From Phyllobates terribilis (lineage: Eukaryota), in contig NW_027362771.1 of the NCBI RefSeq assembly GCF_046119375.1, positions 333,963,686-333,996,000 of the forward strand: a stretch of 32,315 nucleotides of DNA, given 5' to 3'. The first letter of the stretch is position 1, and each line of letters starts with the position of its first letter. A program made the position numbers and the translations under genes. Positions 5,667-31,623 of the stretch are shown one piece after another. The notes below the pieces were generated by a model. The model saw nothing but the letters and a program-made list of their open reading frames with translations. It was not told the DNA's origin and did not search any database.

Positions 5667-6789
5667 GTGGGCTAGACCCTGCTTTACTGAACAAACATCG
5701 GTTGTCAATTCTGACTGATGCTCAGTAGGATCTTCTGACTGCACAGTGACAATGCACTCTCTCGCCAGTTCTGATCAGAAGTGAAAAGCCAGCAACAGAG
5801 TGCACTGTCATTGAACATTTTAAGTAAAGAACAAGAGAGCAGAATCAGCATTGCGCCCGCAAGTGGCATCACCTAAATTTACCTAAAAATTGCTGCATTT
5901 GTGAGATGGATATTTACACCATTACAACTACTGTACTAGTTTTGTTTCTGATCATACTATTTATATAGTATAATAGGTAAAAAGTAGGAAGAGAACCACC
6001 TACATGTTACAATTAAGTGCAGTATGTTCAATCAACCTTCATTGATAATAATTACCATTACTTTTACACCTCATTCATTTACGTTATTGTTATCAATCAT
6101 TCAAATTGTGATGATAATTGCTTCATGTAAACTGACTTTTATATTAATCAATAAAACAATAACCAAATTCGGTTACACTCTCTTCTCTGCACTGTTTGTT
6201 CAGACTGAACCTCATACAATATTTAATTAAGATCTACAATAAAAGACTCTCCTAAATTAGTTTACTCAGAAGAGCTAGGAAACGGCACGCAGCCCTGCAG
6301 GGTTGGGCAGTCATCTTAAGTCATTCTCTGGAACATGATTCATGATTAAAGGTACAGTACCAGATTTTATTTCATATTGCTCTAGTCATGCTATGTAGTG
6401 TTATAAACAATTTTACAATTTTACTTACAGTTAGGTCCATATACAGTATATTTGGACAGAGATAACATTTTTCTAATTTTGGTTCTAGACATTACCACAA
6501 TGAATTTTAAACAAAACAATTCAGATGCAGTTGAAGTTCAGACTTTCAGCTTTCATTTGGGGGTATCCACATTAAAATTGGATGAAGGGTTTAGGAGTTT
6601 CAGCTCCTTAACATGTGCCACCCTGTTTTTAAAGGGACCAAAAGTAATTGCACAATTGACTCCAAGGCTATTTCATGGACAGGTGTGGGCAATCCCTTCA
6701 TTATGTCATTCTCAATTAAGCAGATAAAAGGCCTGGAGTTGATTTGAGGTGTGGTGCATGCATTTGGAAGGTTTTGCTGTGAAGTAAAC

Positions 6790-7457
6790 ATGCGGTCAAA
6801 GGAGCTCTCCATGCAGGTGAAACAAGCCATCCTAAGCTGCAAAAACAGAAAAAACCCATCCGAGAAATTGCTACAATATTAGGAGTGGCAAAATCTACAG
6901 TTTGGTACATCCTGAGAAAGGAAGAAAGCACTGGTGAACTCATCAATGCAAAAAGACCTGGGCGCCCACGGAAGACAACAGTGGTGGATGATCGCAAAAT
7001 AATCTCCATGGTGAAGAGAAACCCCTTCACAACAGCCAACCAAGTGAACAACACTCTCCAGGAGGTAGGCGTATCAATATCCAAATCTACCATAAAGAGA
7101 AGACTGCATGAAAGTAAATACAGAGGGTTCACTGCACGGTGCAAGCCACTCATAAGTATCAAGAATAAAAAGGCTAGACTGGACTTTGCTAAAAAACATC
7201 TAAAAAAGCCAGCACAGTTCTGGAAGAACATTCTTTGGACAGATGAAACCAAGATCAACCTCTACCAGAATGATGGAAAGAGAAAAGTATGGCGAAGGCG
7301 TGGTACAGCTCATGATCCAAATCATACCACATCATCTGTAAAACACGGCGGAGGCAGTGTGGTGGCTTGGGCATGCATGGATGCCAGTGGCACTGGGTCA
7401 CTAGTGTTTATTGATGATGTGACACAGGACAAAAGCAGCCGAATGAATTCTGATGTA
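6790..7457 (+). pseudogene. Tc1-A transposase, N-terminal part (paired-like HTH plus first catalytic D)
   Basis: ATG 6790 MRSKELSMQVKQAI, then an inferred 1-nt frameshift into the 6885 frame (KSTVWYILRK...GRPRK...WTDETK...VKHGGGSV); broken at TA 7456-7457. Confidence 0.9.
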
Positions 7458-7833
7458 CAGTCATGGCCAAAAGTATTGAGAATGAGACAAATAGTAATTT
7501 TTCCAAAGTTTACTGCTTCATTTTTTGTAATGGCAATTTGCATATACTCCTGAATGTCAAAGAGTGATCAGCTTAACAGCAATTACTGTACTTGCAAAGT
7601 AAATATTTGCCCAGAAAATGAACTTTAACCCCCAAAACACATTTCAACATCATTGCAGTCCTGCCTTAAAAGGAGCAGCTAACATCGTTTTAGTGATTGA
7701 TCCATTAACACAGGTGTGGGTGTTGATGAGGACAGGGCTGGCGATCAATCAGTCATGATTAAGTAAGAATGACATGACTGGACACTTTAAAAGGAGGCTG
7801 GTTCTTGGTATCATTGTTTCTCTTCTGTTAACC

Positions 7834-8614
7834 ATGGTTATCTCTAAAGAAACACGTGCAGCCATCATTGCACTGCACAAAAATGGCCTAACAGGGAAGA
7901 GTATCGCAGCTACAAAGATTGCACCTCAGTCAACAATCTATCGCATCATCAAGAACTTCAAGAAGAGAGCTTCCATTGTTGTCAAAAAGGCTCCAGGGCA
8001 CCCAAGAAAGACCAGCAAGCGCCAGGACCGTATCTTAAAACTGTTTCAGCTGCGGGATCGGACTACCAGCAGTGCCGAGCTTGCTCAGGAATGGCAGCAG
8101 GCTGGTGTGAGTGCTTCTGCACGCTCTGTGAGGCGGAGACTCTTTGAGCAAGGGCTGGTTTCAAGGAGGGCAGCAAAGAAGCCACTTCTCTCCAGAAAAA
8201 ACATCAGGGACCGACTGATATTCTGCAAAAGGTACAGGGAGTGGACTGCTGAGGACTGGGGCAAAGTCATTTTCTCTGATGAATCCCCTTTTCGATTGTT
8301 TGGGACATCTGGAAAACAGCTTATTCGGAGAAGAAGAGGTGAGCGCTACCACCAGTCTTGTCTCATGCCAACTGTAAAGCATCCTGAAACCATTCATGTG
8401 TGGGGTTGCTTCCCAGCCAAGGGAATCGGTTCACTCACAGTCTTGCCTAAAAACACAGCCATGAATTAAGAATGGTACCAGAATGTCCTCCAAGAGCAAC
8501 TTCTCCCAACCATCCAAGAGCAGTTTGGCGCCCAACAATGCTTTTTCCAGCATGATGGAGCATCTTGCCATAAAGCAAAGGTGATAAATAAATGGCTCAT
8601 GGAACAAAACATAG
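7834..8614 (+). pseudogene. Element B transposase, 5' part
   Basis: MVISKETRAAIIALH...IFSDES...TVKHP; premature TAA at 8467-8469, then in frame EWYQNVL...FQHDGASCHKAK...EQNI up to the LTR insertion. Confidence 0.9.
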
Positions 8615-9243
8615 TGTCACACTGTCACAGAATACTGGAGGTAGGGGGCCTAAGCTGACCCTAAGCTGGGGCCCTGACTAATCCCTCAACCTGGAGGTAC
8701 TGTTAAAGGTACAGAGGTCCAGGCCGCCAGCGTAACCCCTACCTCCTGAGGATCCCTGCACCTCAGTAATCTAGTCCTGAGAAGGACCCCGATCACAACA
8801 ATTGGGAACCAGAAATAATATGCCCACACACAGTATTTAGACGAACGAGACAGTACAAGGGAAAAACCAAAACCACCTTGCATACAACTTCTACACAACT
8901 ACAACAGAGGGAACACCAACGGGAAAGGAGATAAATGATAAAGCGAGGAAAGGGAAAAAACACTTCCAAATACACTTATCTCAGCAACTCCAAACACCAC
9001 GATCCGCTCTGTAAGTCTGAATGAAAAGCTTTCACCGACACCTCCCAAACAGACCTGCAGGAATATGAAGGAGTCTCACTAAAGAAGCATTGATTGCAGC
9101 TGGGCGAGGCTGGACCTCAGCTAGCCCAGAGAGAGAGAGAATTAACTCCTTCACTGCCGAAAAAACACAAAGCACCAACAAGTCAGCTGCGAGAAGTCAG
9201 GCTGTGTACTCGTGACGATCTTCGTGGCAACACACCCGTGACA
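8615..9243 (-). repeat. 3' LTR of the chromovirus
   Basis: Direct repeat of 13430-14058 (offset 4815); no difference found by eye. Confidence 0.95.
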
Positions 9244-12200
9244 GTACCCCCCCTTCTACGAGGGGCCTCCGGACCCTCAGGGCCAGGTTTATTCGGGTGA
9301 GTCGTGTGGAAGGCCCGAACTAATCGGTCTGCGTTAATATCCGACGCAGGAACCCACATCCTCTCCTCAGGACCATACCCCTTCCAATGAACCAAGTACT
9401 GAAGGGACCGGCGATTAAAGCGTGAATCAATGACCCTCGATACCTGGAACTCCAAGTTACCATTGACAACCACAGGAGGGGGAGGTAAAGGTGACGGTAC
9501 CACCGGCGCCACATACCTCTTAAGCAATGATCTGTGAAACACGTTGTGAATTTTAAACGTAGGGGGGAGGTCAAGACGGAATGCCACCGGATTAATAACA
9601 GAACTGATTCTGTACGGCCCGATGAACCTGGGACCCAGTTTCCAGGAGGGAACCTTAAGTTTAATATTCCTGGTAGACAACCATACCTGATCGTTCACAC
9701 TTAGGTCCGGACCAGACACTCTCCTCCTATCAGCCATACGTTTGTATCGGTTCCCCATAGTATTCAGATTCTTCAGCACCCCTCTCCATACTGAAGCGAG
9801 AGATGAGGAAAATCGTTCCTCCTCCGGAACCCCCGAAGAGCCCCCCCTACTGAAAGTACAAAACTGGGGGTGAAAACCATATGCCCCAAAAAACGGGGAC
9901 TTACCAGTGGACTCGCTCCGCCTATTATTGAGAGCAAACTCTGCCAGAGGTAGGAAAGAAGCCCAGTCCTCCTGGTTCTCTGACACAAAACACCGAAGAT
10001 ATGTCTCCAAGCTCTGGTTCATACGTTCCGTCTGACCATTAGTCTGAGGATGAAAAGCCGACGAGAATGACAAATGCATCCCCCGCCGTGCACAAAACGC
10101 CTTCCAGAACTTGGACACAAACTGAGACCCCCGATCAGACACCACCTCGGAGGGTACCCCGTGAAGCCTCACAATCTCCCCAATGAACACCTGCGCAAGA
10201 GTTTTAGCATTAGGGAGAGCCGGAAGAGCGATAAAATGTGCCATCTTGCTGAACCTGTCCACTACAACGAGTATGACCGTTTTACCCGAAGACGGAGGGA
10301 GGTCCGTAATAAAGTCCATAGACAGATGAGTCCAAGGACGCTCCGGGATCTTCAAAGGTAAAAGGGCCCCAGACGGACGGGTATGTGAGGTCTTAGAGCG
10401 CGCACAAACCCCACAGGACGCGACAAAAGTTACCACCTCTTTATGTAAGTTAGGCCACCAAAACCGACGCGAGAGGAGATCCACAGTTGCTTTACTCCCC
10501 GGGTGTCCTGCAAAAACTGAGTTATGGTGTGCCTCGATCACCTTTTGTCGCAACTGATCTGGAACGAACAGTCTCCCCGGAGGTCCAACAGGGGCGTCCC
10601 CCTGAGCCTCCACTATCTCCTCCTCCAGCTCAGAGCATACTGCCGAAACCACCACCCCCTCCTGAAGAATAGGAATCGGGTCGTCCGTATTCCCGGCCCC
10701 AGGGAAACTACGAGATAAGGCATCCGCCTTTACATTTTTAGACCCAGGACGATATGTAACGACGAAATTAAACCTGGTAAAAAACAATGACCACCTAGCT
10801 TGTCTGGGATTCAGACGTTTAGCGGACTCCAGATATAGCAGGTTCTTGTGATCGGTGATGACGGTGACCGGATGAACTGCCCCCTCCAAAAAATGGCGCC
10901 ACTCCTCAAAAGCTAACTTAATGGCCAAGAGTTCCCTATTGCCGACATCGTAATTCCTCTCAGCGGACGACAATTTTTTAGAGAAAAAGGCGCACGGATG
11001 CCACTTACCAGGGGACGAACCCTGTGACAATACTGCTCCCACCCCTACCTCGGAAGCGTCTACCTCTACAAAGAATGGCTGAGACGCATCAGGTTGAATG
11101 AGTATGGGTGCCGAGGCAAAACATTTTTTCAAGGAGGAAAATGCTTGACAAGCCTTGTCAGACCACCTAGAAAAATCCGTCCCCTTTTTAGTCATGTCTG
11201 TGAGAGGCTTAACCATGGAGGAGAAATTACGAATGAACTTCCGGTAATAGTTAGCAAACCCCAGGAAACGTTGTAGTGCCTTAAGATTCTCCGGCCGATC
11301 CCACTCAAGAACTGCCCGCACTTTCCCAGGGTCCATACGAAAACCGGACGCTGAAACCAGGAAGCCTAAAAACTGGAGTTCCTGTACGGCGAACACACAC
11401 TTTTCCCACTTGGCATACAGTTTATTATCCCGCAAGATCTGTAACACCTGTCTAACGTGCTCCTGATGAGACACCAGATCCGGCGAGTAAATTAAGATAT
11501 CATCCAGATATATGACAACAAACTGTCCCACCAGGTGGCGAAAAATATCATTAACAAAGTGTTGAAACACCGCCGGGGCATTAGTCAGACCGAATGGCAT
11601 GACAAGGTTCTCATAATGCCCCTCCGGAGTGTTAAAAGCCGTCTTCCACTCATCCCCCTCCTTCATCCTAATCAGATTGTACGCCCCCCTGAGATCCAAC
11701 TTAGAGAACCATTTGGCGCCCACGATCTGATTAAAGAGATCGGGAATAAGTGGGAGCGGATACGGATCTCGGACCGTAATCCGATTAAGTTCACGGAAAT
11801 CCAGGCAAGGGCGTAGGCCTCCATCTTTCTTCTTAACAAAGAAGAACCCCGCGGCCACCGGTGAAGATGAAGGTCTAATATGCCCCTTAGCCAGACTTTC
11901 AGAAATATAATCCTTCATGGCCTGCCTCTCAGGACCAGAAAGGTTATACAACCTAGCTTTAGGTAACTTGGCCTCAGGGAGCAGTTTTACAGAACAGTCA
12001 TACTCGCGATGAGGAGGTAGTTCCTGACACCCATTCTCCGAGAATACATCCTCAAAGTCCGCCAGAAATGGAGGTAAGACCCAAGGAGTAACCGCACCGA
12101 TGACCGTGTTCATGCAGTTTTTATTACAGAATTTACTCCATTGGCTTATCTCTCTGGTTTGCCAATTAATAACCGGGTTATGCTTAGCTAACCAAGGAAG

Positions 12201-13394
12201 GCCCAACACTATAGGAGTGGGAAGACCCTCCAACACGTAGCAAGACAACAGTTCTTTATGTATTGCCCCCACTTGAAGTTTTACGCCATGCACAGCTTGC
12301 AAAAAACTTCCCTGACCGAGAGGCCTGGCATCGATCGAGAATATGGGGATGGGTTTAGCCAACTCACTCAATCGCATACCTTGAACCCGGGCAAACCGAG
12401 CATCAACCAGATTAGCCCCGGCCCCACTATCCAGAAGAACAGATATCCTCTCAGTTCTCGCACCCACCACCACCTCCGCCGGTACGAGAAACTGAGACGA
12501 ACCTAGGGACGAAATACCTACTCCCAGATTGCCGTCCACCACACAACCTGGGATCAACAGTTTTTTCGACGACTCTTTACTCTGCAAGGGACGGGATGGA
12601 CACCCCCCAATAAAATGTCCCTTTTTCCCGCAGAGGAAACACCTTCCTGTCTTATGGCGCTCCACCGGTCCCCTTCCCCGAAATGATGTCCCTCCTAATT
12701 GCATAGGCTCCTCCGGACTGACCAGGGGAACCACCATATGAGGGGACCTTGTAGGAGGTGGAGACATTACAGGGGGTAGAGTTATCCCGCACCTCTCCCG
12801 AAACCGTCTGTCAACGCGAATGGCAAGGGCCATAGCGGCTTCCAGTGACGCGGGAGAGTCATACTGTGCCAACACATCCTGTAATTTGTCGGATAAACCA
12901 TGACAAAACTGGCTCCTAAGAGCCGGGTCATTCCACTGGGTGTCCGTGGCCCACCTACGGAACTCCGAACAGAATTCCTCCGCCGGACGATCTCCCTGCT
13001 GAATCCTACGTAACTTAGACTCAGCAAGGGAGATCCGATCTGGGTCATCATATACGAGTCCCAGAGCAGCGAAAAACCTATCCACTGACTGGAGAACCGG
13101 GGAGCTTGGGGGAAGAGAGAACGCCCAAGATTGTGGGTCCCCTTGTAGGAGCGAGATGACAATTCCCACCCTTTGTTCTTCGCTGCCCGATAACCGAGGC
13201 CGCAGCCGAAAGTACAATTTGCATGCCTCCCGGAAAACAAAAAACTTGTCCCGCCCCCCAGTGAACCTGTCAGGGAGAGCTACTTTAGGTTCTGGTCCGG
13301 CTTGCTCCAGAGGATGCAAAACCTTGGACCTAACGTCCGCCAGCCCCATGGACAAACTCTGCAACTGCCGAGCTAGACCGGCTACTGGATCCAT
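9183..13394 (-). CDS. Gag-Pol polyprotein (gag, CCHC knuckle, protease, RT, RNase H, integrase, chromodomain), 1403 aa
   Basis: CFLCGKKGHFIGGC; LLDSGA; YLDD; VDAS; integrase H-H-C-C and SMDF/SDRG/TER; GPY; C-terminal FQVSRVIDSR...YLVHWKGYGPEERMW. The stop codon lies inside the 3' LTR. Confidence 0.97.
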   Translation of the reverse strand: MDPVAGLARQLQSLSMGLADVRSKVLHPLEQAGPEPKVALPDRFTGGRDKFFVFREACKLYFRLRPRLSGSEEQRVGIVISLLQGDPQSWAFSLPPSSPVLQSVDRFFAALGLVYDDPDRISLAESKLRRIQQGDRPAEEFCSEFRRWATDTQWNDPALRSQFCHGLSDKLQDVLAQYDSPASLEAAMALAIRVDRRFRERCGITLPPVMSPPPTRSPHMVVPLVSPEEPMQLGGTSFRGRGPVERHKTGRCFLCGKKGHFIGGCPSRPLQSKESSKKLLIPGCVVDGNLGVGISSLGSSQFLVPAEVVVGARTERISVLLDSGAGANLVDARFARVQGMRLSELAKPIPIFSIDARPLGQGSFLQAVHGVKLQVGAIHKELLSCYVLEGLPTPIVLGLPWLAKHNPVINWQTREISQWSKFCNKNCMNTVIGAVTPWVLPPFLADFEDVFSENGCQELPPHREYDCSVKLLPEAKLPKARLYNLSGPERQAMKDYISESLAKGHIRPSSSPVAAGFFFVKKKDGGLRPCLDFRELNRITVRDPYPLPLIPDLFNQIVGAKWFSKLDLRGAYNLIRMKEGDEWKTAFNTPEGHYENLVMPFGLTNAPAVFQHFVNDIFRHLVGQFVVIYLDDILIYSPDLVSHQEHVRQVLQILRDNKLYAKWEKCVFAVQELQFLGFLVSASGFRMDPGKVRAVLEWDRPENLKALQRFLGFANYYRKFIRNFSSMVKPLTDMTKKGTDFSRWSDKACQAFSSLKKCFASAPILIQPDASQPFFVEVDASEVGVGAVLSQGSSPGKWHPCAFFSKKLSSAERNYDVGNRELLAIKLAFEEWRHFLEGAVHPVTVITDHKNLLYLESAKRLNPRQARWSLFFTRFNFVVTYRPGSKNVKADALSRSFPGAGNTDDPIPILQEGVVVSAVCSELEEEIVEAQGDAPVGPPGRLFVPDQLRQKVIEAHHNSVFAGHPGSKATVDLLSRRFWWPNLHKEVVTFVASCGVCARSKTSHTRPSGALLPLKIPERPWTHLSMDFITDLPPSSGKTVILVVVDRFSKMAHFIALPALPNAKTLAQVFIGEIVRLHGVPSEVVSDRGSQFVSKFWKAFCARRGMHLSFSSAFHPQTNGQTERMNQSLETYLRCFVSENQEDWASFLPLAEFALNNRRSESTGKSPFFGAYGFHPQFCTFSRGGSSGVPEEERFSSSLASVWRGVLKNLNTMGNRYKRMADRRRVSGPDLSVNDQVWLSTRNIKLKVPSWKLGPRFIGPYRISSVINPVAFRLDLPPTFKIHNVFHRSLLKRYVAPVVPSPLPPPPVVVNGNLEFQVSRVIDSRFNRRSLQYLVHWKGYGPEERMWVPASDINADRLVRAFHTTHPNKPGPEGPEAPRRRGGTVTGVLPRRSSRVHSLTSRS
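9247..9257 (-). promoter_or_regulatory. Polypurine tract
   Basis: Minus strand AGAAGGGGGGG, 3 nt before the 3' LTR. Confidence 0.85.
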
Positions 13395-13418
13395 GGTAGC
13401 TGGAGAAAAACTAAGTTG

Positions 13419-13429
13419 GTCGGTGAAAA
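13419..13429 (-). promoter_or_regulatory. Primer-binding site, self-priming (non-tRNA) type
   Basis: Minus strand TTTTCACCGAC directly after the 5' LTR; lacks the TGG start of tRNA PBSs; complementary to GTCGGTGAAAG inside the LTR (13854-13844). Confidence 0.75.
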
Positions 13430-14058
13430 TGTCACACTGTCACAGAATACTGGAGGTAGGGGGCCTAAGCTGACCCTAAGCTGGGGCCCTGACTAATCCC
13501 TCAACCTGGAGGTACTGTTAAAGGTACAGAGGTCCAGGCCGCCAGCGTAACCCCTACCTCCTGAGGATCCCTGCACCTCAGTAATCTAGTCCTGAGAAGG
13601 ACCCCGATCACAACAATTGGGAACCAGAAATAATATGCCCACACACAGTATTTAGACGAACGAGACAGTACAAGGGAAAAACCAAAACCACCTTGCATAC
13701 AACTTCTACACAACTACAACAGAGGGAACACCAACGGGAAAGGAGATAAATGATAAAGCGAGGAAAGGGAAAAAACACTTCCAAATACACTTATCTCAGC
13801 AACTCCAAACACCACGATCCGCTCTGTAAGTCTGAATGAAAAGCTTTCACCGACACCTCCCAAACAGACCTGCAGGAATATGAAGGAGTCTCACTAAAGA
13901 AGCATTGATTGCAGCTGGGCGAGGCTGGACCTCAGCTAGCCCAGAGAGAGAGAGAATTAACTCCTTCACTGCCGAAAAAACACAAAGCACCAACAAGTCA
14001 GCTGCGAGAAGTCAGGCTGTGTACTCGTGACGATCTTCGTGGCAACACACCCGTGACA
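13430..14058 (-). repeat. 5' LTR of the chromovirus
   Basis: Direct repeat of 8615-9243. Confidence 0.95.
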
Positions 14059-14299: not shown

Positions 14300-14478
14300 C
14301 TTGCTGCATTAACTCATTCTAACTGTCAATATAACCTATTGGTACTCATAATATGATTGCAATTATATTTCTGTATGTGATATAAACATCAGACAAACTC
14401 TAATAAAAACCAGAGGCCAGCAGATCATGTGAAAATATAATTTTGGTATCATTCTCAAAACTTTTGGCCATGACTGTA

Positions 14479-14847
14479 TTCAGAGCCATACTGTGTGCTC
14501 AGATCCAGCCAAATGCAGCCAAACTGATTGGTCGTCGTTTCATACTACAGATGAACAATGATCCAAAACATAAAGCCAAAGCAACCCAGGAGTTTATTAA
14601 AGGAAAGAAGTGGAATATTCTTGAATGGCCAAGTCAGTCACCTGATCTCAACCCAATTGAGCATGCATTTCACTTGTTAAAGACTAAACTTCAGACAGAA
14701 AGGCCCACAAACAAACAGCAACTGAAAACCACCGCAGTGAAGGCCTGGCAGAGCATCAAAAAGGAGGAAACACAGCGTCTGGTGATGTCCATGAGTTCAA
14801 GACTTCAGGCAGTCATTGCTAACAAAGGGTTTTCAACCAAGTACTAG
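14479..14847 (+). pseudogene. Tc1-A transposase, C-terminal part
   Basis: FRAILCAQIQP...QMNNDPKH...WPSQSPDLNPIE...KY*; in frame with 7457. The second catalytic D reads N, and 34 residues separate it from the E. Confidence 0.9.
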
Positions 14848-15214
14848 AAATGAACATTTTATTTACAATTATTTAATCTGTCCAGTTACTTTTGGTCCCT
14901 TTAAAAACAGGGTGGCACATGTTAAGGAGCTGAAACTCCTAAGCCCTTCATCCAATTTTAATGTGGATACCCTCATATTAAAGCTGAAAGTGTGAACTTC
15001 AACTGCATCTGAATTGTTTTGTTTAAAATTCATTGTGGTAATGTCTAGAACCAAAATTAGAAAAATGTTGTCTCTGTCCAAATATATATGGACCTAACTG
15101 TATGTCTGAAAAACCTAAAATGCATCACATAAATACCAAGTAAACAAAGTTGAAAGATAGCTTATTTTATAACTTTCCTTTGTTATGACTGCCAAAGCAC
15201 ATTCATAAACAGTG

Positions 15215-16676
15215 AAACTGAAATATCACATGGTCATAAGTATTCAGACCCTTTGCTCAGACACTCATATTTAAGTCACATGCTGTCCATTTCCTTATGA
15301 TCCTCCTTGAGATGGTTCTACTCCTTTATTGGAGTCCAGCTGTGTTTAATTAAACTGATAGGACTTGATTTGGAAAGGCACACACCTGTCTATATAAGAC
15401 CTCACAGCTCACAGTGCATGTCAGACCAAATGAGAATCATGAGCTCAAAGGAACTACCCAAGGAGCTCAGAGACAGAATTGTAGCAAGGCACAGATCTGG
15501 CCAAGGTTACAAAAGAATTTCTGCATTACTCAATGTTCCTAAGAGCACATTGGCCTCCATAATCCTTAAATGGAAGAAGTTTGGGACCACCAGAAGTGTT
15601 CCTAGACCAAGCCGTCCAGCCAAACTGAGCAATCGTGGGAGAAGAGCCTTGGTGAGAGAGGTAAAGAAGAACCCCAAGATCACTGTGGCTGAGCTCCAGA
15701 GATGCAGTAGGGAAATGGGAGAAAGTTCCACAAAGTCAACTATCACTGCAGCCCTCCACCAGTCTGGCCTTTATGGCAGAGTGGCCTGACGGAAGCCTCT
15801 CCTCTGTGCAAGACATATGAAAGCCCGCATAGAGTTTGCTCAACAACACATGAAAGACTCCCAGACTATGAGAAATAAGATTCTCTAGTCTGATGGGACA
15901 ACTATAGAACTTTTTGGTGATAATTCTAAGCGGTATGTGTGGAGAAAACCAGGCACTGCTCATCACCTGCCCAATACAATCCAAACAGTGAAACATGGTG
16001 GTGGCAGCATCATGCTATGGGGGAGTTTTTCAGCTGGAGGGACAGGATGACTGGTTGCAATTGAAGGAAACATGAATGCGGCCAAATACAGAGATATCCT
16101 GGATGTAAACCTCTTCCAGAGTGCTCTGGACCTCAGACTTGGCTGAAGGTTCACCTTCCAACAAGACAATGACCCTAAGCGCACAGCTAAAATAACAAAG
16201 GAGTGGTTCAGAACAACTCTGTGACCATTATTGACTGGCGCAGCGAGAGCCCTGACCTAAACCCAATTGAGCATCTCTCGAGAGACCTGAAAATGACTGT
16301 CTACCAACGTACACCATCCAACCTGACGGAACTGGAAAGGATCTGCAAGGAAGAATGGCAGAGGATCCCCAAATACAGGTGTGAAAAACTTGATACATCA
16401 TTCCAAATAAGACTCATGGCTGTACTAGCTCAAAAGGGTGCTTCTACTCAATACTGAGCAAAGGGTCTGAATACTTATGACCATGTGATATTTCAGTTTT
16501 TATTTTTTAATAAATTTGCAAAAATTTCTACATTTCTTGTTTTTTTTTTCAGTCAAGATGGGGTGCAGAGTGTACTTTAATGAGAAAAAAATGAACTTTT
16601 TAGAATTTACCAAATGGCTGCAATGAAACAAAGAGTGAAAAATGTAAAGGGGTCTGAATACTTTCCGTACCCACTG
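15215..16676 (+). mobile_element. Tc1 element C (IR/DR type), outer part of left TIR missing
   Basis: Right end ...ggtctgaatactttccgtacccactg|TA (16676). The inner TIR segment aaactgaaatatcacatggtcataagtattcagaccctttgctcag at 15215 is mirrored at ~16452-16500. Confidence 0.9.
15439..16457 (+). pseudogene. Tc1-C transposase pseudogene
   Basis: MSSKELPKELRDRIV...[11 protein letters not shown]...QQDNDPK...SPDLNPIE...STQY*, with at least four in-frame stops and a frameshift. Confidence 0.9.
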
Positions 16677-22949: not shown

Positions 22950-23010
22950 CTGTAGGCTGTATGCCCATCTTAATATTTTAGATAGGTCAAATGTGACAGA
23001 TTCCCTTTAA
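22950..23010. mobile_element. Short T2/Kolobok-type right terminus
   Basis: tgacagattccct|TTAA at 22994-23010. Confidence 0.5.
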
Positions 23011-23012
23011 TA

Positions 23013-23271
23013 AAACCAGGGGAGGAGTCCTGAGGAGATAATTTGCATATTCCCACTGCATTTTGGGGTAAGTGAAGAGTCTCCGCGAGCTCAAAGAACA
23101 CTGGATTTTGGCTGTTGGAGCTGAAAAGAGGACATCGGTAAACCAGGGGAGGAGTCCTGAGGAGATAATTTGCATATTCCCACTGCATTTTGGGGTAAGT
23201 GAAGAGTCTCCGCGAGCTCAAAGAACACTGGATTTTGGCTGTTGGAGCTGAAAAGAGGACATCGGTAAACC
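23013..23271 (+). repeat. Two identical 127-bp tandem monomers at the CR1 5' end, each with an octamer ATTTGCAT
   Basis: ggagataatttgcat at 23034 and 23161; copies identical by eye; octamers at 23041-23048 and 23168-23175. Confidence 0.9.
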
Positions 23272-23338
23272 GCGCGCCATTTTGAAGCTTTTTTTTTTAA
23301 GCTTTTTTCACTGTTTTCAGAACATTAACAATAAGAAC

Positions 23339-24301
23339 ATGGAAGAGTCCAGGAGCCATTTGGTGAGCTGCATATCCTGCTACATGTTCACAGACTGGCC
23401 AGTGGAAAAGCCAAACTTCACATGCCAGAAATGCAAGCTTGTGTCCCTGTTGGAGGAAAAGTTGCGAAATCTAGAAGAGAGGTTAACTACCTTGAAAATC
23501 ATTAAGGAAGGTGAAGAGTTCTTAGACAGAGCAGAATTATCTCTTCATGATTCAGAAAGAGAAGAAATTCGAACTGCACCTGACGAAACAGAGGAATGGA
23601 AGCATGTGACCCACAGAAGCAGGAGGATCGAGAGGCAGTCAGCACCCATACTGCTCAGGAACCAGTACCAGGCTCTCACGCAGGAGAACCATGAAGAAAT
23701 ACAGCAAAATAAGACTTTGCCAGCAATGAATAACCTTGTAAGCCCTCAGAATCCTCCTGGATGGAGAAAGAAGAATGTTGTGAAGAAAAAACGGAGAGTG
23801 GTGGTCATGGGGGATTCCCTGTTAAGAGGAACAGAGGCCGCTATCTGCAGACCAGACATAACCTCAAGAGAAATGTGCTGTCTTCCAGGAGCAAAAATTA
23901 AAGATGTGTCTGACAGGATATCAAGACTCTTCAGACCTACAGATCACTACCCATTCCTGCTAATACATGTGGGGACAAATGACACCGCAAGAAAGGACCT
24001 GGAAACCATCTGCAGTGACTTTGAAGACTTAGGCAAGAAAGTGAAAGAATTGGGAGCGCAGGTGGTCTTCTCATCCATCCTCCCAGTGGATGGCCATGGA
24101 ACAATGAGGTGGAATAAGATTCTACAGGTGAACAACTGGCTACGTCGATGGTGCCGTCAACAAGGATTTGGATTTCTGGATCACGGAATGAATTACCTAT
24201 ACGATGGACTACTTGCTAGAGATGGGGTGCACCTTACGAAGACTGGAAAACATGTATTTGGAAGTCGCCTTGCTACACTCATCAGAAGAGCTTTAAACTA
24301 G
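23339..24301 (+). CDS. CR1 ORF1p (CX2CX14CX2C zinc finger, coiled coil, SGNH esterase), 320 aa
   Basis: CISC-X14-CQKC; LEEKLRNLEERL; GDSL, GTND and DGVH esterase blocks all intact; first ATG at 23339. Confidence 0.92.
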   Translation: MEESRSHLVSCISCYMFTDWPVEKPNFTCQKCKLVSLLEEKLRNLEERLTTLKIIKEGEEFLDRAELSLHDSEREEIRTAPDETEEWKHVTHRSRRIERQSAPILLRNQYQALTQENHEEIQQNKTLPAMNNLVSPQNPPGWRKKNVVKKKRRVVVMGDSLLRGTEAAICRPDITSREMCCLPGAKIKDVSDRISRLFRPTDHYPFLLIHVGTNDTARKDLETICSDFEDLGKKVKELGAQVVFSSILPVDGHGTMRWNKILQVNNWLRRWCRQQGFGFLDHGMNYLYDGLLARDGVHLTKTGKHVFGSRLATLIRRALN

Positions 24302-24423
24302 AACAATGTGGGAAGGGAAGCAAAAGGCCAGAAAAAGCCATACAGCTGACAAATACTATTGAGATCTCTGCTACTGGAAGTGGAAAGGAAGAACAAAGAC
24401 AAAACAATTTAAATAATAAAAAT

Positions 24424-27213
24424 ATGGGAGGAAGAGAAACCAATCACAAACTAAAATGTTTTTATACAAATGCACAAAGCATGGGCAACAAACAAGGAGA
24501 ATTGGAACTACTAATGCAGGAAAAGGAATATGATGTCATTGGAATCACTGAAACTTGGTGGGACGATACACATGATTGGAATAAAAGGCTAAAAGGATAC
24601 AACTTATTTGCAAGAAACAGACTTGATAAACGAGGAGGAGGTGTTGCATTGTATGTTAGAAAAGCGTATATCTGCACAGAGATTGAAGCTTCAGAGACTG
24701 GGAGTTCTGTGGAAACTGTTTGGGTAAGAATACAAGGAGAGAACAACGGAAAGGACACCATTGTAGGCATTTACTACAGGCCACCTGGGCAAGCTGAAGA
24801 TATGGATGAACTCTTTATGTATCAAATGACCAAGTTCTCCAAAAAATATGACGTAGTGGTCATGGGAGATTTCAACTATCCAGACATTTGTTGGGAATCT
24901 CTCTCAAGTAAAACTAACAGGTCAAGCAAATTCTTATCCTCTCTTGCTGACAACTTTATCTTCCAAAAGGTAGGGGAGAAAACAAGGGGATCTGCTACTT
25001 TGGATCTAATCCTTATAAACAGGGAGGAAATGGTTGAGGAGGTAAAGGTGGCTGGGACCCTAGGAGGCAGCGATCATGCTATTATAGAATTTTGGATAAC
25101 TAGAGGAGGAAGACATGTGAAGACTCAGACTTCAAGGTTAGATTTTAGAAAGGCAGATTTTAAGAGACTCAGAAAGAGAATAGGAGGGATCCAATGGCTG
25201 GATGTCCTTAAGGACAAAAATGTCCAGGAAGGATGGGAAATTTTTAAAAATGAGATTCTCAAAGCACAATCGTTAACAATCCCGAAAAGTAGGAAGAATG
25301 GGAAGCATTTAAGGAAACCAGGATGGATGAACACAGAACTTAAACACATGCTAAAAAGAAAGAAAGAAATGTTTATTAAATGGAAAGAGGGAGGCATATC
25401 TAAAGAAGATTATAATGCAGTCTGCAGATCCTGTAGGGCACGTATCAGGTTAGCTAAAGCTGACAATGAATTAAGGCTTGCAAGAGATGTCAAAAGCAAT
25501 AAAAAAGGATTTTGGGGGTATGTCAAAAGTAAAAGAAAAGTCAAAGATGCTATAGGATTTTTACAGGATGAAAATGGAGAAATGGTAAGAGAGGATGTTG
25601 AGAAGGCCGAACTTTTTAATTCCTATTTTGCATCTGTTTTCTCTCAGAAAGAAAATGTAACATCAGCTGATCTTCACTGTCCTTTTAAAGGAATAGAGGA
25701 ATCCAAGTTATCTGTAAACAGAAAGATTGTGAGGGAATATTTAGCTAACATAAATGAGTTCAAGTCTCCAGGTCCAGATGAATTACACCCCAGAGTACTG
25801 AAGGAGATCGTAGAAGAAATTTTAGAACCACTCTCCATAATCTTTGAAAATTCTTGGAGAACAGGAGAAGTCCCAGAAGACTGGAGAAGAGCAAATGTTG
25901 TTCCTATCTTCAAAAAGGGGAAGAAGGTGGACCCAGGGAACTATAGGCCGGTGAGTCTGACTTCTATACCAGGAAAGATCTTTGAACAAATTATTAAACA
26001 ACATGTATGTAAGTACATGGATAAGAATGAAGTGATTAACCAGAGTCAGCATGGGTTTGTAACTAACAAGTCATGTCAGACTAACTTAATTTCCTTCTAT
26101 GACAGAATCACTGACTGGGTGGATCAGGGAAATGCAGTAGATATAGTATATCTTGACTTCAGCAAAGCATTTGACAAAGTATCTCACACCATCCTTATTG
26201 AAAAAATGACCAAGTATGCAATGGACCAGGCAACTGTTAGGTGGATTCATAACTGGCTTAGTGATCGGACTCAAAGGGTGGTTGTAAATGGCTTCACATC
26301 CAGCTGGATGAATGTCTCAAGTGGGGTACCACAGGGCTCCGTCCTGGGACCTGTATTGTTCAACATCTTTATCAATGATTTAGATGAAGGAATTGAGGGT
26401 AAACTGATTAAATTTGCTGATGACACAAAGCTAGGAGGGATAGCTAATACTAGAGAAGAGAGAGAGAGGATTCAAAAAGACCTAAATAAACTGGAGCAGT
26501 GGGCAGCAACCAACAGAATGGTTTTTAACAGGGAAAAATGCAAAGTACTACATCTGGGCAATAAAAATGAAAAAAGCATATACAGAATGGGAGGAATAGA
26601 GCTAAGCAACAGTACATGTGAAAAAGACTTAGGTATACTAATAGATCATAGACTGAACATGAGTCAACAGTGTGATGCAGCAGCAAAAAAGGCAAATACA
26701 ATTCTGGGATGTATTAACAGAAGCATACAGTCTAGATCACGTGAAGTCATTATCGGTCTTTACTCCTCTTTGGTCAGACCTCATCTGGAATACTGTGTAC
26801 AGTTTTGGGCACCACATTTTAAAAAAGACATAGACAAACTGTAGCAAGTTCAGAGAAGAGCGACCAGAATGGTGACTGGTCTGCAAACCATGTCCTATGA
26901 GGAATGGTTGCAGGATTTGGGAATGTTTAGCTTGCAAAAAAGAAGACTGAGAGGAGACTTAATAGCTGTCTACAAATATGTCAAGGGCTGTCACATTGTA
27001 GAAGGATCATCTTTATTCTCATTTGCACAAGGAAAGACTAGAAGCAATGGGATGAAACTAAATGGGAGGAGACACAGATTAGATATTAGAAAAAACTTTT
27101 TGACAGTTAGGGTGATTAATGAGTGGAACAGGCTGCCACGAGAGGTGGTGAGTTCCCCTTCAATGGACGTCTTCAAACAGAGGCTGGACAGACATCTGTC
27201 TGAGATGATCTAG
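24424..27213 (+). pseudogene. CR1 ORF2 (APE + RT) with a single premature stop at 26842-26844
   Basis: TNAQS, ITETW, YRPP, GDFN, SDH; PGPD, YRPVSLT, QHGF, DFSKAFD, PQGSVLGP, FADD. After the TAG the same frame continues QVQRRATRM...HLSEMI* (122 aa). Confidence 0.93.
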
Positions 27214-27275
27214 TGAATCCTGCTTTGAGCAGGGGGTTGGACCAGATGACGCATGAGGTCCCTTCCAACTCTACC

Positions 27276-27302
27276 ATTTTATGATTCTATGATTCTATGA
27301 TT
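27276..27302 (+). repeat. CR1 3' tail (ATTYTATG)n
   Basis: attttatg attctatg attctatg att; the octamer tail is characteristic of CR1. Confidence 0.9.
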
Positions 27303-27306
27303 TTTA

Positions 27307-27580
27307 ATACACCTGGTGTGGGAATGTCTGAATATTAAGGAATACTGTAAGGAGGTCATCGACTTAGTAATACAAGTATATGGAGTCCACATACAATCAG
27401 ATTTGAGGATTTTTATCCTGGGCCTCTGGGGTGAGTTAATCTGGATTCCCATTAAGTGATAGACATCTCTTGTATACTATTCCTGCTGCTCTATTGTTAC
27501 AGGAACTGAAGTAAAAAATAAATAATACCATACCCTTAGGAAAAAAAATACAAAAAATGAACGGGGTCCATGGATAGACT
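27307..27580 (+). pseudogene. L1 ORF2 C-terminal remnant
   Basis: IHLVWECLNIKEYCKEVIDLVIQVYG...RIFILGL resembles the L1-clade C-terminal H..W.C...FW..V...ILG segment. Confidence 0.5.
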
Positions 27581-30064: not shown

Positions 30065-30710
30065 TGTCATGGGGATACCGCAACAGAGTGGGGCCAGAAG
30101 ATTGTGGCGTCCGGTTACACAAACTCCTGCACTTATTACAACTGCTTCACCATCCTACTAAATAGTACAGGTTTCCTTGCTGTCATGGCAGGGGTTAATC
30201 AGTTCAGTTGATCTCTGGGAGCTCTCCATCCTGGTTTGTCTCAGCTGCTCTGTGTTGGCTACTCCCCTCTGGTATATATGTTCGCCACTGGCACTTGGGA
30301 GTTGCCAGTGATAGTTCTACTTCCTGGTTTGGTGGTGAAGGAGAAAGTTCAGTGTTCGGAGTTGCGGGTGGAGAGCTTTTCTGGAGATTGCTGCGTGGAG
30401 TTGGTTTGCGTGTTTTTCCTTATGCTCTGTTTCCCACTCCTTTGTTTTGTCAGTGTATTTGTATGATGGTAGTTTTCTTTTATCCCTTTCTGTTAACCCT
30501 GTCTGTCTGGTTAGTTTTTTCCTATACACTTCAGCCCCTCACCTCCCTGGGTAGGGGAGTGATCAGATAAGGGTTAAATTAGGAGCATAGATAGGTACGA
30601 GAACCTGGCATCTCCACCTTCAGGAGTAATCCGGGGGAAAGGGATAGACTAGTGCGCTCCTAGTTTAAGGGATCAGGTAGGTGCCCACAGTCTCTAATCA
30701 CTATGTGACA
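30065..30710 (+). mobile_element. Solo LTR, copy 1 (646 bp)
   Basis: TGTCAT...GTGACA termini; flanks GCCTG/GCCTC; TATATA at 30273. Confidence 0.82.
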
Positions 30711-30980: not shown

Positions 30981-31623
30981 TGTTATGGGGATACCGCAAC
31001 AGAGTGGGGCCAGAAGATTGTGGCGTCCGGTTACACAAACTCCTGCACTTATTAGAACTGCTTCACCATCCTATTAAATAGTACAGGTTTCCTTGCTGTC
31101 ATGGCAGGGGTTAATCAGTTCAGTTGATCTCTGGGAGCTCTCCATCCTGGTTTGTCTCAGCTGCTCTGTGTTGGCTACTCCCCTCTGGTATATATGTTCA
31201 CCACTGGCACTTGGGAGTTGCCAGTGATAGTTCTACTTCCTGGTTTGGTGGTGAAGGAGAAAGTTCAGTGTTTGGAGTTGGCGATTGGAGAGCTTTTCTG
31301 GAGATTGCTGCGTGGAGTTGGTTTGCATGTTTTTGCTTATGCTATGTTTCCCAGTCTGTTGTTCTGTCAGTGTATTTGTATGATTGCAATTTTCTTTTAT
31401 CCCTGTCTGTTAACCCTGTCTGGTTAGTGTTTTCCTATACACTTCAACCCCTCACCTCCCTGGGTGTGGGAGGGATCAGATAAGGGTTAAGTTTGGAGCA
31501 TAGATAGGTAAGAGAACCCGACGTCTCCACCTTCAAGAGTAAACCGGGGGACAGGGATAGACTAGTGCGCTCCTAGTTCAAGGGATCTGGTAGGTGCCCA
31601 CAGTCCTTAATCGCTATGTTACA
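30981..31623 (+). mobile_element. Solo LTR, copy 2 (643 bp)
   Basis: TGTTAT...GTTACA termini; perfect TSD GCCTC (30976-30980 and 31624-31628); clearly homologous to copy 1. Confidence 0.85.

Follow-up and report, generated by a model that had tools for sequence, protein, structure and literature searches.

A conserved slippery heptamer at the ORF1-ORF2 junction of CR1 retrotransposons and a predicted -1 ribosomal frameshift

Heptamers of the form X_XXY_YYZ drive -1 ribosomal frameshifting, and reinitiation is the usual answer to how open reading frame 2 (ORF2) is translated in long interspersed nuclear elements (LINEs) with two open reading frames. SART1 and L1 are described as making a separate ORF2 protein by termination-reinitiation, at a UAAUG overlap or across a spacer (PMC5972666, PMC3708506), and L1 ORF2 initiation is described as AUG-independent. 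For TRE5-A and TRE3-A of Dictyostelium, ORF2 expression is said to depend on a -1 frameshift (PMC5911963). U_UUA_AAC is listed among the most shift-prone heptamers and is used by infectious bronchitis virus (PMC5009743). Most vertebrates have CR1-group elements as their dominant retrotransposons (PMC13343379). Here we analysed a stretch of 32,315 nucleotides from Phyllobates terribilis (the window), which contains a full-length CR1-type LINE at about 23013-27302 on the forward strand. An earlier note on the window had suggested that CR1 may fuse ORF1 to ORF2 by -1 frameshifting, and computed conservation, phase and linker tests support the suggestion. We consider it very probable, from sequence comparison, that -1 ribosomal frameshifting at the CR1 junction yields an ORF1-ORF2 fusion.

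Published vertebrate CR1 elements with a type IV esterase ORF1 (PMC4120745, PMC13343379) have the same zinc finger and SGNH esterase in ORF1, the same APE endonuclease and reverse transcriptase in ORF2 and the same 3' microsatellite repeats as the element in the window. Both papers treat ORF1 and ORF2 as separate open reading frames, and the word 'frameshift' is absent from the accessible parts of their main texts.

ORF1 ends in GCT TTA AAC TAG, as the earlier note had read it: TTTAAAC lies at 24292-24298 in the phase U_UUA_AAC and is adjoined by TAG at 24299-24301. TTTAAAC occurs six times in the window (both strands), and only at the junction does a stop directly follow it. ORF2 lies, again as claimed, in the -1 frame, which is open from 24220 to 26844, and the first ATG past the slip site is the one at 24424; an out-of-frame ATG is found 8 nt past the heptamer. 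The locus combines three canonical features of -1 frameshifting, namely a phased X_XXY_YYZ heptamer, a -1 frame open from the heptamer and a heptamer conserved beyond amino-acid needs. The features of the junction, by position in the window, are:

23339..24301, forward strand: ORF1 of 320 amino acids (from ATG 23339), a CX2CX14CX2C zinc finger followed by an SGNH esterase, C-terminus RRALN and stop
24292..24298, forward strand: slippery heptamer U_UUA_AAC in ORF1 phase (from the sequence and comparison among copies)
24299..24301, forward strand: ORF1 stop TAG, directly 3' of the heptamer (from the sequence)
24309..24319, forward strand: G-rich motif GGG-AW-GGG, 11-21 nt past the heptamer, candidate stimulator (from copy comparison)
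24298..24447, forward strand: linker between the ORF1 end and the APE domain with an open -1 frame, 149 nt when counted from the final codon of ORF1 to where APE begins
24424..24426, forward strand: sole in-frame ATG ahead of APE, lacking conservation (two other organisms, B and C, have ATT in their sister elements)
24448..27213, forward strand: ORF2 in the -1 frame, coding for an APE endonuclease and a reverse transcriptase (from Pfam, L1 endonuclease and ExoIII matches)

Conservation of the slippery heptamer

The search for ORF1 homologs found 142 sequences, of which 120 were listed, and the named ones come from frogs, turtles, lizards, snakes, birds, crocodilians and a ray. Among the matches listed, Leu-Asn stands at the C-terminus in 91 of the 94 homologs that align within three residues of it, the sequence ends there in 87, and the preceding residue takes eight forms (A, T, Y, E, L, F, S and G). 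The ending in Leu-Asn, which the earlier note gave for amniotes, holds far beyond them among these homologs. No relatives were found among viral contigs and plasmids. Three matches in genome contigs come from records of bacterial metagenome-assembled genomes; two of them have an SGNH end that lacks a final Leu-Asn, and these two were left out. Furthermore, a CR1 ORF1 ending in RRALN is filed under a bacterial name (protein P0043), which is probably host contamination.

Codons were compared in a set of 20 copies, comprising one copy from each of three families of this genome (F1, the family of the window; F2, which ends in EECLN; and F3) and 17 host-derived metagenome copies. The metagenome copies were retrieved by peptide patterns upstream of the junction and are hence unselected for the heptamer; some searches in this genome included the Leu-Asn end. 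From 60 metagenome loci 23 junction calls were obtained and 17 were used. Calls were dropped where the sequence ends before the stop (L092, L097, L101 and L118), where an indel lies just upstream and the heptamer is present further on (L102), and where the site is degraded (L104) or deleted (L126). L127, with TAT in the stop position, was kept among the 17.

In all 20 copies Leu at position -2 is encoded by TTA and Asn at position -1 by AAC, with no parsimony change on the tree. A rival explanation at the protein level would be selection only on the ORF1 end Leu-Asn-COOH, with the codons reflecting shared descent or base composition. The Leu may extend the hydrophobic face of the last esterase helix, and many of the sampled copies are related. 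However, five other conserved Leu columns use 4-6 codons in the same copies and show 4-9 changes each (mean 6.0; Poisson chance of none 0.0025), and TTA accounts for only 14 of 175 codons at other Leu positions. Ten two-fold columns have a mean of 3.0 changes, and one of them (Phe at -45) has none. Codon identity at same-residue sites among the three families of this genome is only 35-48%. Codon -3, although variable in the residue that it encodes, keeps its third base as well, ending in T in 19 of 20 copies across six amino acids (the exception is F3, with G_TTA_AAC). Moreover, the solved L2-type esterase structure (4c1b) aligns to ORF1 only as far as residue 316, so the esterase fold does not obviously need the Leu-Asn dipeptide, and the phase of the linker would stay unexplained. 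Selection on the protein end alone is thus scarcely credible. Judged from these comparisons, the junction site is under nucleotide-level constraint, beyond chance.

Within this genome, the F1 pattern with the five heptamer positions freed gave 7487 matches; among the matches listed the heptamer is kept in 100 of 100, and the Arg codon two before Ala is AGA or AGG at a ratio of about 40:60. After de-duplication, TTTAAACTAG is carried by 84 of 85 F1 copies and by 61 of 68 F2-type copies; the site deviates in one F1 and seven F2-type copies, and four of the deviants carry a deletion that fuses the two frames. Free replacement of the heptamer by synonymous codons, which the earlier note had named as a refuting result, was not seen in related CR1 copies. 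The stop after the heptamer is TAG in the window and TAA or TGA in other lineages, and after a -1 shift CTA or CTG is read, both encoding Leu. G_UUA_AAC, the form seen in F3, is given in the review of Atkins as the heptamer of equine arteritis virus (PMC5009743); the F3 copies L209, L212, L215, L219 and L254-L263 have this type of site and several in-frame linker ATGs.

Published consensuses were taken from Supplementary Table 2 of PMC13343379, of which apparently only the first 400 letters per cell are searchable; longer consensuses are missed and the counts carry no denominator. In this searchable part, TTAAAC followed by a stop has 31 matches, 18 of which lie at an ORF1 end by context reading, and all 18 read TTTAAAC followed by TAG, TAA or TGA. 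The labels of these 18 rows appear to denote alligator, crocodile, bearded dragon, bullfrog, coelacanth, bowfin, a teleost, elephant shark, sharks and rays. No match was obtained in the same part of the supplement for any of six synonymous forms of the 12-mer GCT-Leu-Asn-TAG.

Linker phase, start codons and the search for a stimulator

The linkers, measured between the final codon of ORF1 and the beginning of APE, are 89, 131, 134, 149, 170, 188, 206 or 257 nt long, all of which are 2 mod 3 and hence in the -1 phase. The chance that eight lengths all fall in this phase is (1/3)^8, about 1.5e-4. Over the 523 codons of 11 linkers, the -1 frame contains 2 stops, frame 0 contains 37 and the +1 frame 35, so the linker behaves as frameshifting predicts, keeping its phase and being nearly free of stops in the -1 frame. 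Read-through at the stop that ends ORF1 is ruled out by the 37 stops in frame 0. Among the F2-type copies of this genome with a measured linker, about a third are out of the -1 phase, mostly via length changes of a G homopolymer.

In the sister elements no change is listed in 24287-24325, compared with 13 in 24326-24447 (Poisson P about 0.016). Such a block, with TTTAAA and the G-rich stretch conserved at the nucleotide level, would also be expected of an overlapping cis-element, for example a TATA-like TTTAAA internal promoter, a splice acceptor, or a packaging or reverse transcription site, with ORF2 made from a shorter RNA. Yet the conserved block coincides exactly with the heptamer and the stop, and a cis-element leaves unexplained both the -1 phase and the stop-free linker upstream of any AUG. 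A splice acceptor at the junction is ruled out by the TAA and TGA lineages, in which its AG is lost. We regard a cis-element of this kind as a very improbable explanation.

The same sister elements have ATT in place of the ATG at 24424 (T at 24426, at depths of 7879/7909 and 646/646). Their next Met lies past the Asn of TNA, a residue placed close to ExoIII residue 7 by the alignment and taken here to belong to the active site. In the window the first in-frame ATG past the slip site is at +126. Four of the 11 linkers have no in-frame ATG, and two have no ATG in any frame. A conserved start overlapping or near the ORF1 stop was not found in the 11 linkers or the sister elements.

The absence of a strong hairpin or pseudoknot downstream, as described in the earlier note, agrees with z values of -0.31, -1.30 and 0.01 for three downstream stretches of the window. 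Neither a pseudoknot nor a stem-loop was found 5-9 nt downstream in the window copy with a folding that does not model pseudoknots. G-quadruplexes are predicted in only 2 of 17 copies and not in the window. A conserved local stimulator structure was rejected after folding of the window and the 17 copies. In L111 and L113, members of a single bird-type lineage whose stop is TGA, the G-rich motif forms a strong hairpin from about 7-8 nt past the heptamer, the classical position of a stimulator.

The G-rich motif itself is widespread. G is found at each of the positions +11 to +15 in 16-19 of 19 copies and at +18 to +21 in 13-17 of 19, and the motif is also present in many published consensuses within the searchable part of the supplement. 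Its position in F1 and F3 is shifted one base upstream relative to bird and shark elements, it encodes Gly-x-Gly either way, and this offset among lineages suggests a constraint on the nucleotides rather than on Gly-x-Gly. Stimulators at 12-15 nt have been tied to trans factors (review PMC5009743), and a conserved motif about 11-15 nt 3' of the site, the arrangement of protein-stimulated frameshifting, is found here. We infer that the G-rich motif at +11 to +21 is a candidate stimulator. Long-range pairing was also considered. The best partner of 24310-24318 in the window is GTCCCTTCC in the 3' untranslated region (UTR) (27260-27272; -16.1 kcal, compared with -14.9 for the next site). The pairing is unsupported, as the margin is weak and GTCCCTTCC is not the best partner in other families; no long-range partner conserved across families was found, and other families choose other partners.

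Four F2 copies carry the same 5-nt deletion at the site, by which ORF1 and ORF2 are joined in frame (in this genome, G000: G000:C271:1744733, C2:12637418, C3:584162050 and C4:207731449; L204/L223 and L220-L222). In one of these fused copies the open frame spans 1299 codons. Three of the four, located on three contigs and including one whose 5' end is much shorter, group as a clade (UFBoot 98, deletion columns excluded); the fourth has a separate origin and is 99.9% identical to an unfused copy. The clade fits the copying of a fused element. A clean natural ORF1-ORF2 protein was not found among the 19 matches of a search for longer proteins, most of which are gene-model chimeras by name.

Several observations weigh against frameshifting. 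The 20 copies do not amount to 20 independent lineages, since 17 are bird-type elements related to one another, with 11 coming from a single assembly, and these fall into roughly five groups on codon identity. Taken by itself, the Asn codon is weak evidence, because the control column Phe -45 likewise shows no change. The imperfect G_TTA_AAC is present in 4 of 4 F3 copies (10 stretches agree, two being the same loci), and F3 still has copies with an intact ORF2 of 980-986 codons. In an APE-start-anchored search of the accessible published consensuses, the low-confidence consensus EubMac_CR1-1 lacks an intact site. A conserved local fold was not found in the first 60 nt downstream, with z of about -2.3 in only 2 of 17 copies, L111 and L113 of one lineage (by folding without pseudoknot modelling). 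The fused clade gives only modest support because mobilisation in trans is possible. Met occurs in or at the first APE strand in F2 and L098, 4 of 11 linkers have an in-frame ATG 2 nt past the stop (+6), and F3 has one at +15. Finally, the lack of an AUG does not by itself exclude initiation, since that of L1 ORF2 is described as AUG-independent.

These ATGs and the failure to find a stimulator structure would also suit ORF2 being a separate protein, made by termination-reinitiation at a nearby AUG or non-AUG codon, with TTTAAAC and the stop as its signal and the linker as its N-terminus. Reinitiation is the accepted model for other two-ORF LINEs (PMC5972666, PMC3708506), and initiation right at the stop would likewise leave the linker open and phase-locked. 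Nevertheless, it does not account for conserved bases that form an X_XXY_YYZ heptamer phased to ORF1, with a -1 offset that stays fixed over eight linker lengths. Nor is there a UAAUG-type overlap or a conserved start, the in-frame ATG being absent from some linkers, distant in the window and ATT in the sister elements. As the explanation of the junction we find reinitiation improbable; it may operate in lineages with an AUG near the stop.

The CR1 element and its surroundings

The element has the make-up of an esterase-ORF1 CR1 LINE, with a zinc finger and an SGNH esterase in ORF1 and APE and reverse transcriptase domains in ORF2. The zinc finger was recognised from the translation. ORF1 matches the Pfam family Lipase_GDSL_2 with an E-value of 1.4e-7, slightly below the family cut-off, and among solved structures its best match by sequence is PDB 4c1b, a LINE ORF1 esterase (E 3.7e-21, residues 154-316). 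ORF2 matches RVT_1 (E 3e-35) and Exo_endo_phos (E 8e-17) in Pfam and also the L1 endonuclease and ExoIII. CR1 elements end in a hairpin and GATTCTRT-type repeats in place of poly(A), and both are present at the 3' end of this element. Its remaining parts are:

23006..23012, forward strand: left copy of a candidate target-site duplication, TTTAATA (same 7-mer at 27303-27309)
23013..23338, forward strand: CR1 5' UTR containing a tandem pair of units, each about 127 nt long, 23013-23139 and 23140-23266 (from the sequence)
27214..27302, forward strand: CR1 3' UTR with a terminal hairpin and GATTCTAT-type repeats (from the sequence)
27303..27309, forward strand: right copy of the candidate target-site duplication (7-mer TTTAATA as at 23006-23012)

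ORF2 of the window copy has a premature TAG at 26842-26844, and three of the four sibling copies examined are open for 968-971 codons from the slip site, so the window copy is a damaged member of a young family. The junction-spanning 29-mer has 4594 exact copies in the genome, and this CR1 family is young and abundant.

Elsewhere in the window, a 1418-codon open gag-pol-chromodomain frame at 9183-13439 on the reverse strand is by its translation a Ty3/Gypsy-type long terminal repeat (LTR) retrotransposon. Several Tc1-like transposase fragments were recognised, also by translation, at 6783-8469 and 14407-15789 on the forward strand. Two similar frames at 30199-30570 and 31115-31483 on the forward strand, about 916 nt apart, are apparently a local duplication.

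Proposed mechanism and comparison with known systems

In the mechanism that we propose, most ribosomes would terminate at UAG and release the ORF1 protein. A fraction would slip, with tRNA-Leu on UUA and tRNA-Asn on AAC re-pairing on UUU and AAA, after which CUA would be decoded as Leu and reading would continue as ...RRALN-LEQCGK.... Among the transframe peptides put forward in the earlier note, the RRALN-LEQ type is the one that standard two-tRNA slippage would give; the RRALK form would require a slip before Asn decoding, and the RRAFK form is not expected. The predicted product would contain zinc finger, esterase, linker, endonuclease and reverse transcriptase, about 1290 amino acids in intact copies. 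Slippage would set the ratio of ORF1 protein to reverse transcriptase, like Gag to Gag-Pol frameshifting. The pause might come from the adjacent stop, from the G-rich motif at +11 to +21 or from both, and the motif might act as a linear, probably protein-bound element rather than as a fixed pseudoknot.

A further-reaching proposal is that the CR1 reverse transcriptase of jawed vertebrates is produced solely as an ORF1-ORF2 fusion, by way of a structure-free -1 shift stimulated by a protein (a host G-run binder or the ORF1 protein) on the G-rich motif, such that reverse transcriptase output is regulated in trans and the enzyme carries its own esterase and zinc-finger module. We put this forward tentatively and regard it as rather unlikely in full.

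The conserved slip site makes the question of ORF2 translation directly testable with a seven-base mutant. If frameshifting is true, the CR1 enzyme would be redefined as an ORF1-ORF2 fusion, ORF2 annotations without a start codon would be explained, and CR1 would possibly provide a vertebrate frameshift without an RNA-structure stimulator. A statement of CR1 frameshifting was not found in a full-text literature search, within the accessible parts of its sources (including PMC11835228, PMC5405496 and PMC3905857), the 1997 CR1 descriptions and Kapitonov and Jurka 2003 lying outside its reach. 'CR1' occurs 0 times in the accessible part of PMC5009743. This is likely a known recoding mechanism in a LINE clade for which we found no report of it, with an atypical stimulator.

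TRE5-A and TRE3-A, compared by description only, are APE-type non-LTR elements like CR1 and belong to another clade with another ORF1. CR1 resembles SART1 and L1 in having a bicistronic LINE RNA that requires ORF2 expression, and differs from them in its phase-locked coding linker and in the lack of a conserved start. [quoted passage not shown] CR1 likewise has a short linear motif, equally far from the site (+11 to +21), and lacks a fixed structure; its motif is G-rich whereas that of PRRSV is C-rich, and the resemblance is purely positional. Compared with ORF1a/1b of coronaviruses and arteriviruses and with retroviral gag-pol, CR1 is a non-LTR element of the host genome, has no conserved pseudoknot or hairpin 5-9 nt downstream, and has its stop adjoining the heptamer. 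What it shares with them is the heptamer at the end of the first open reading frame and the polymerase in the -1 frame (PMC5009743).

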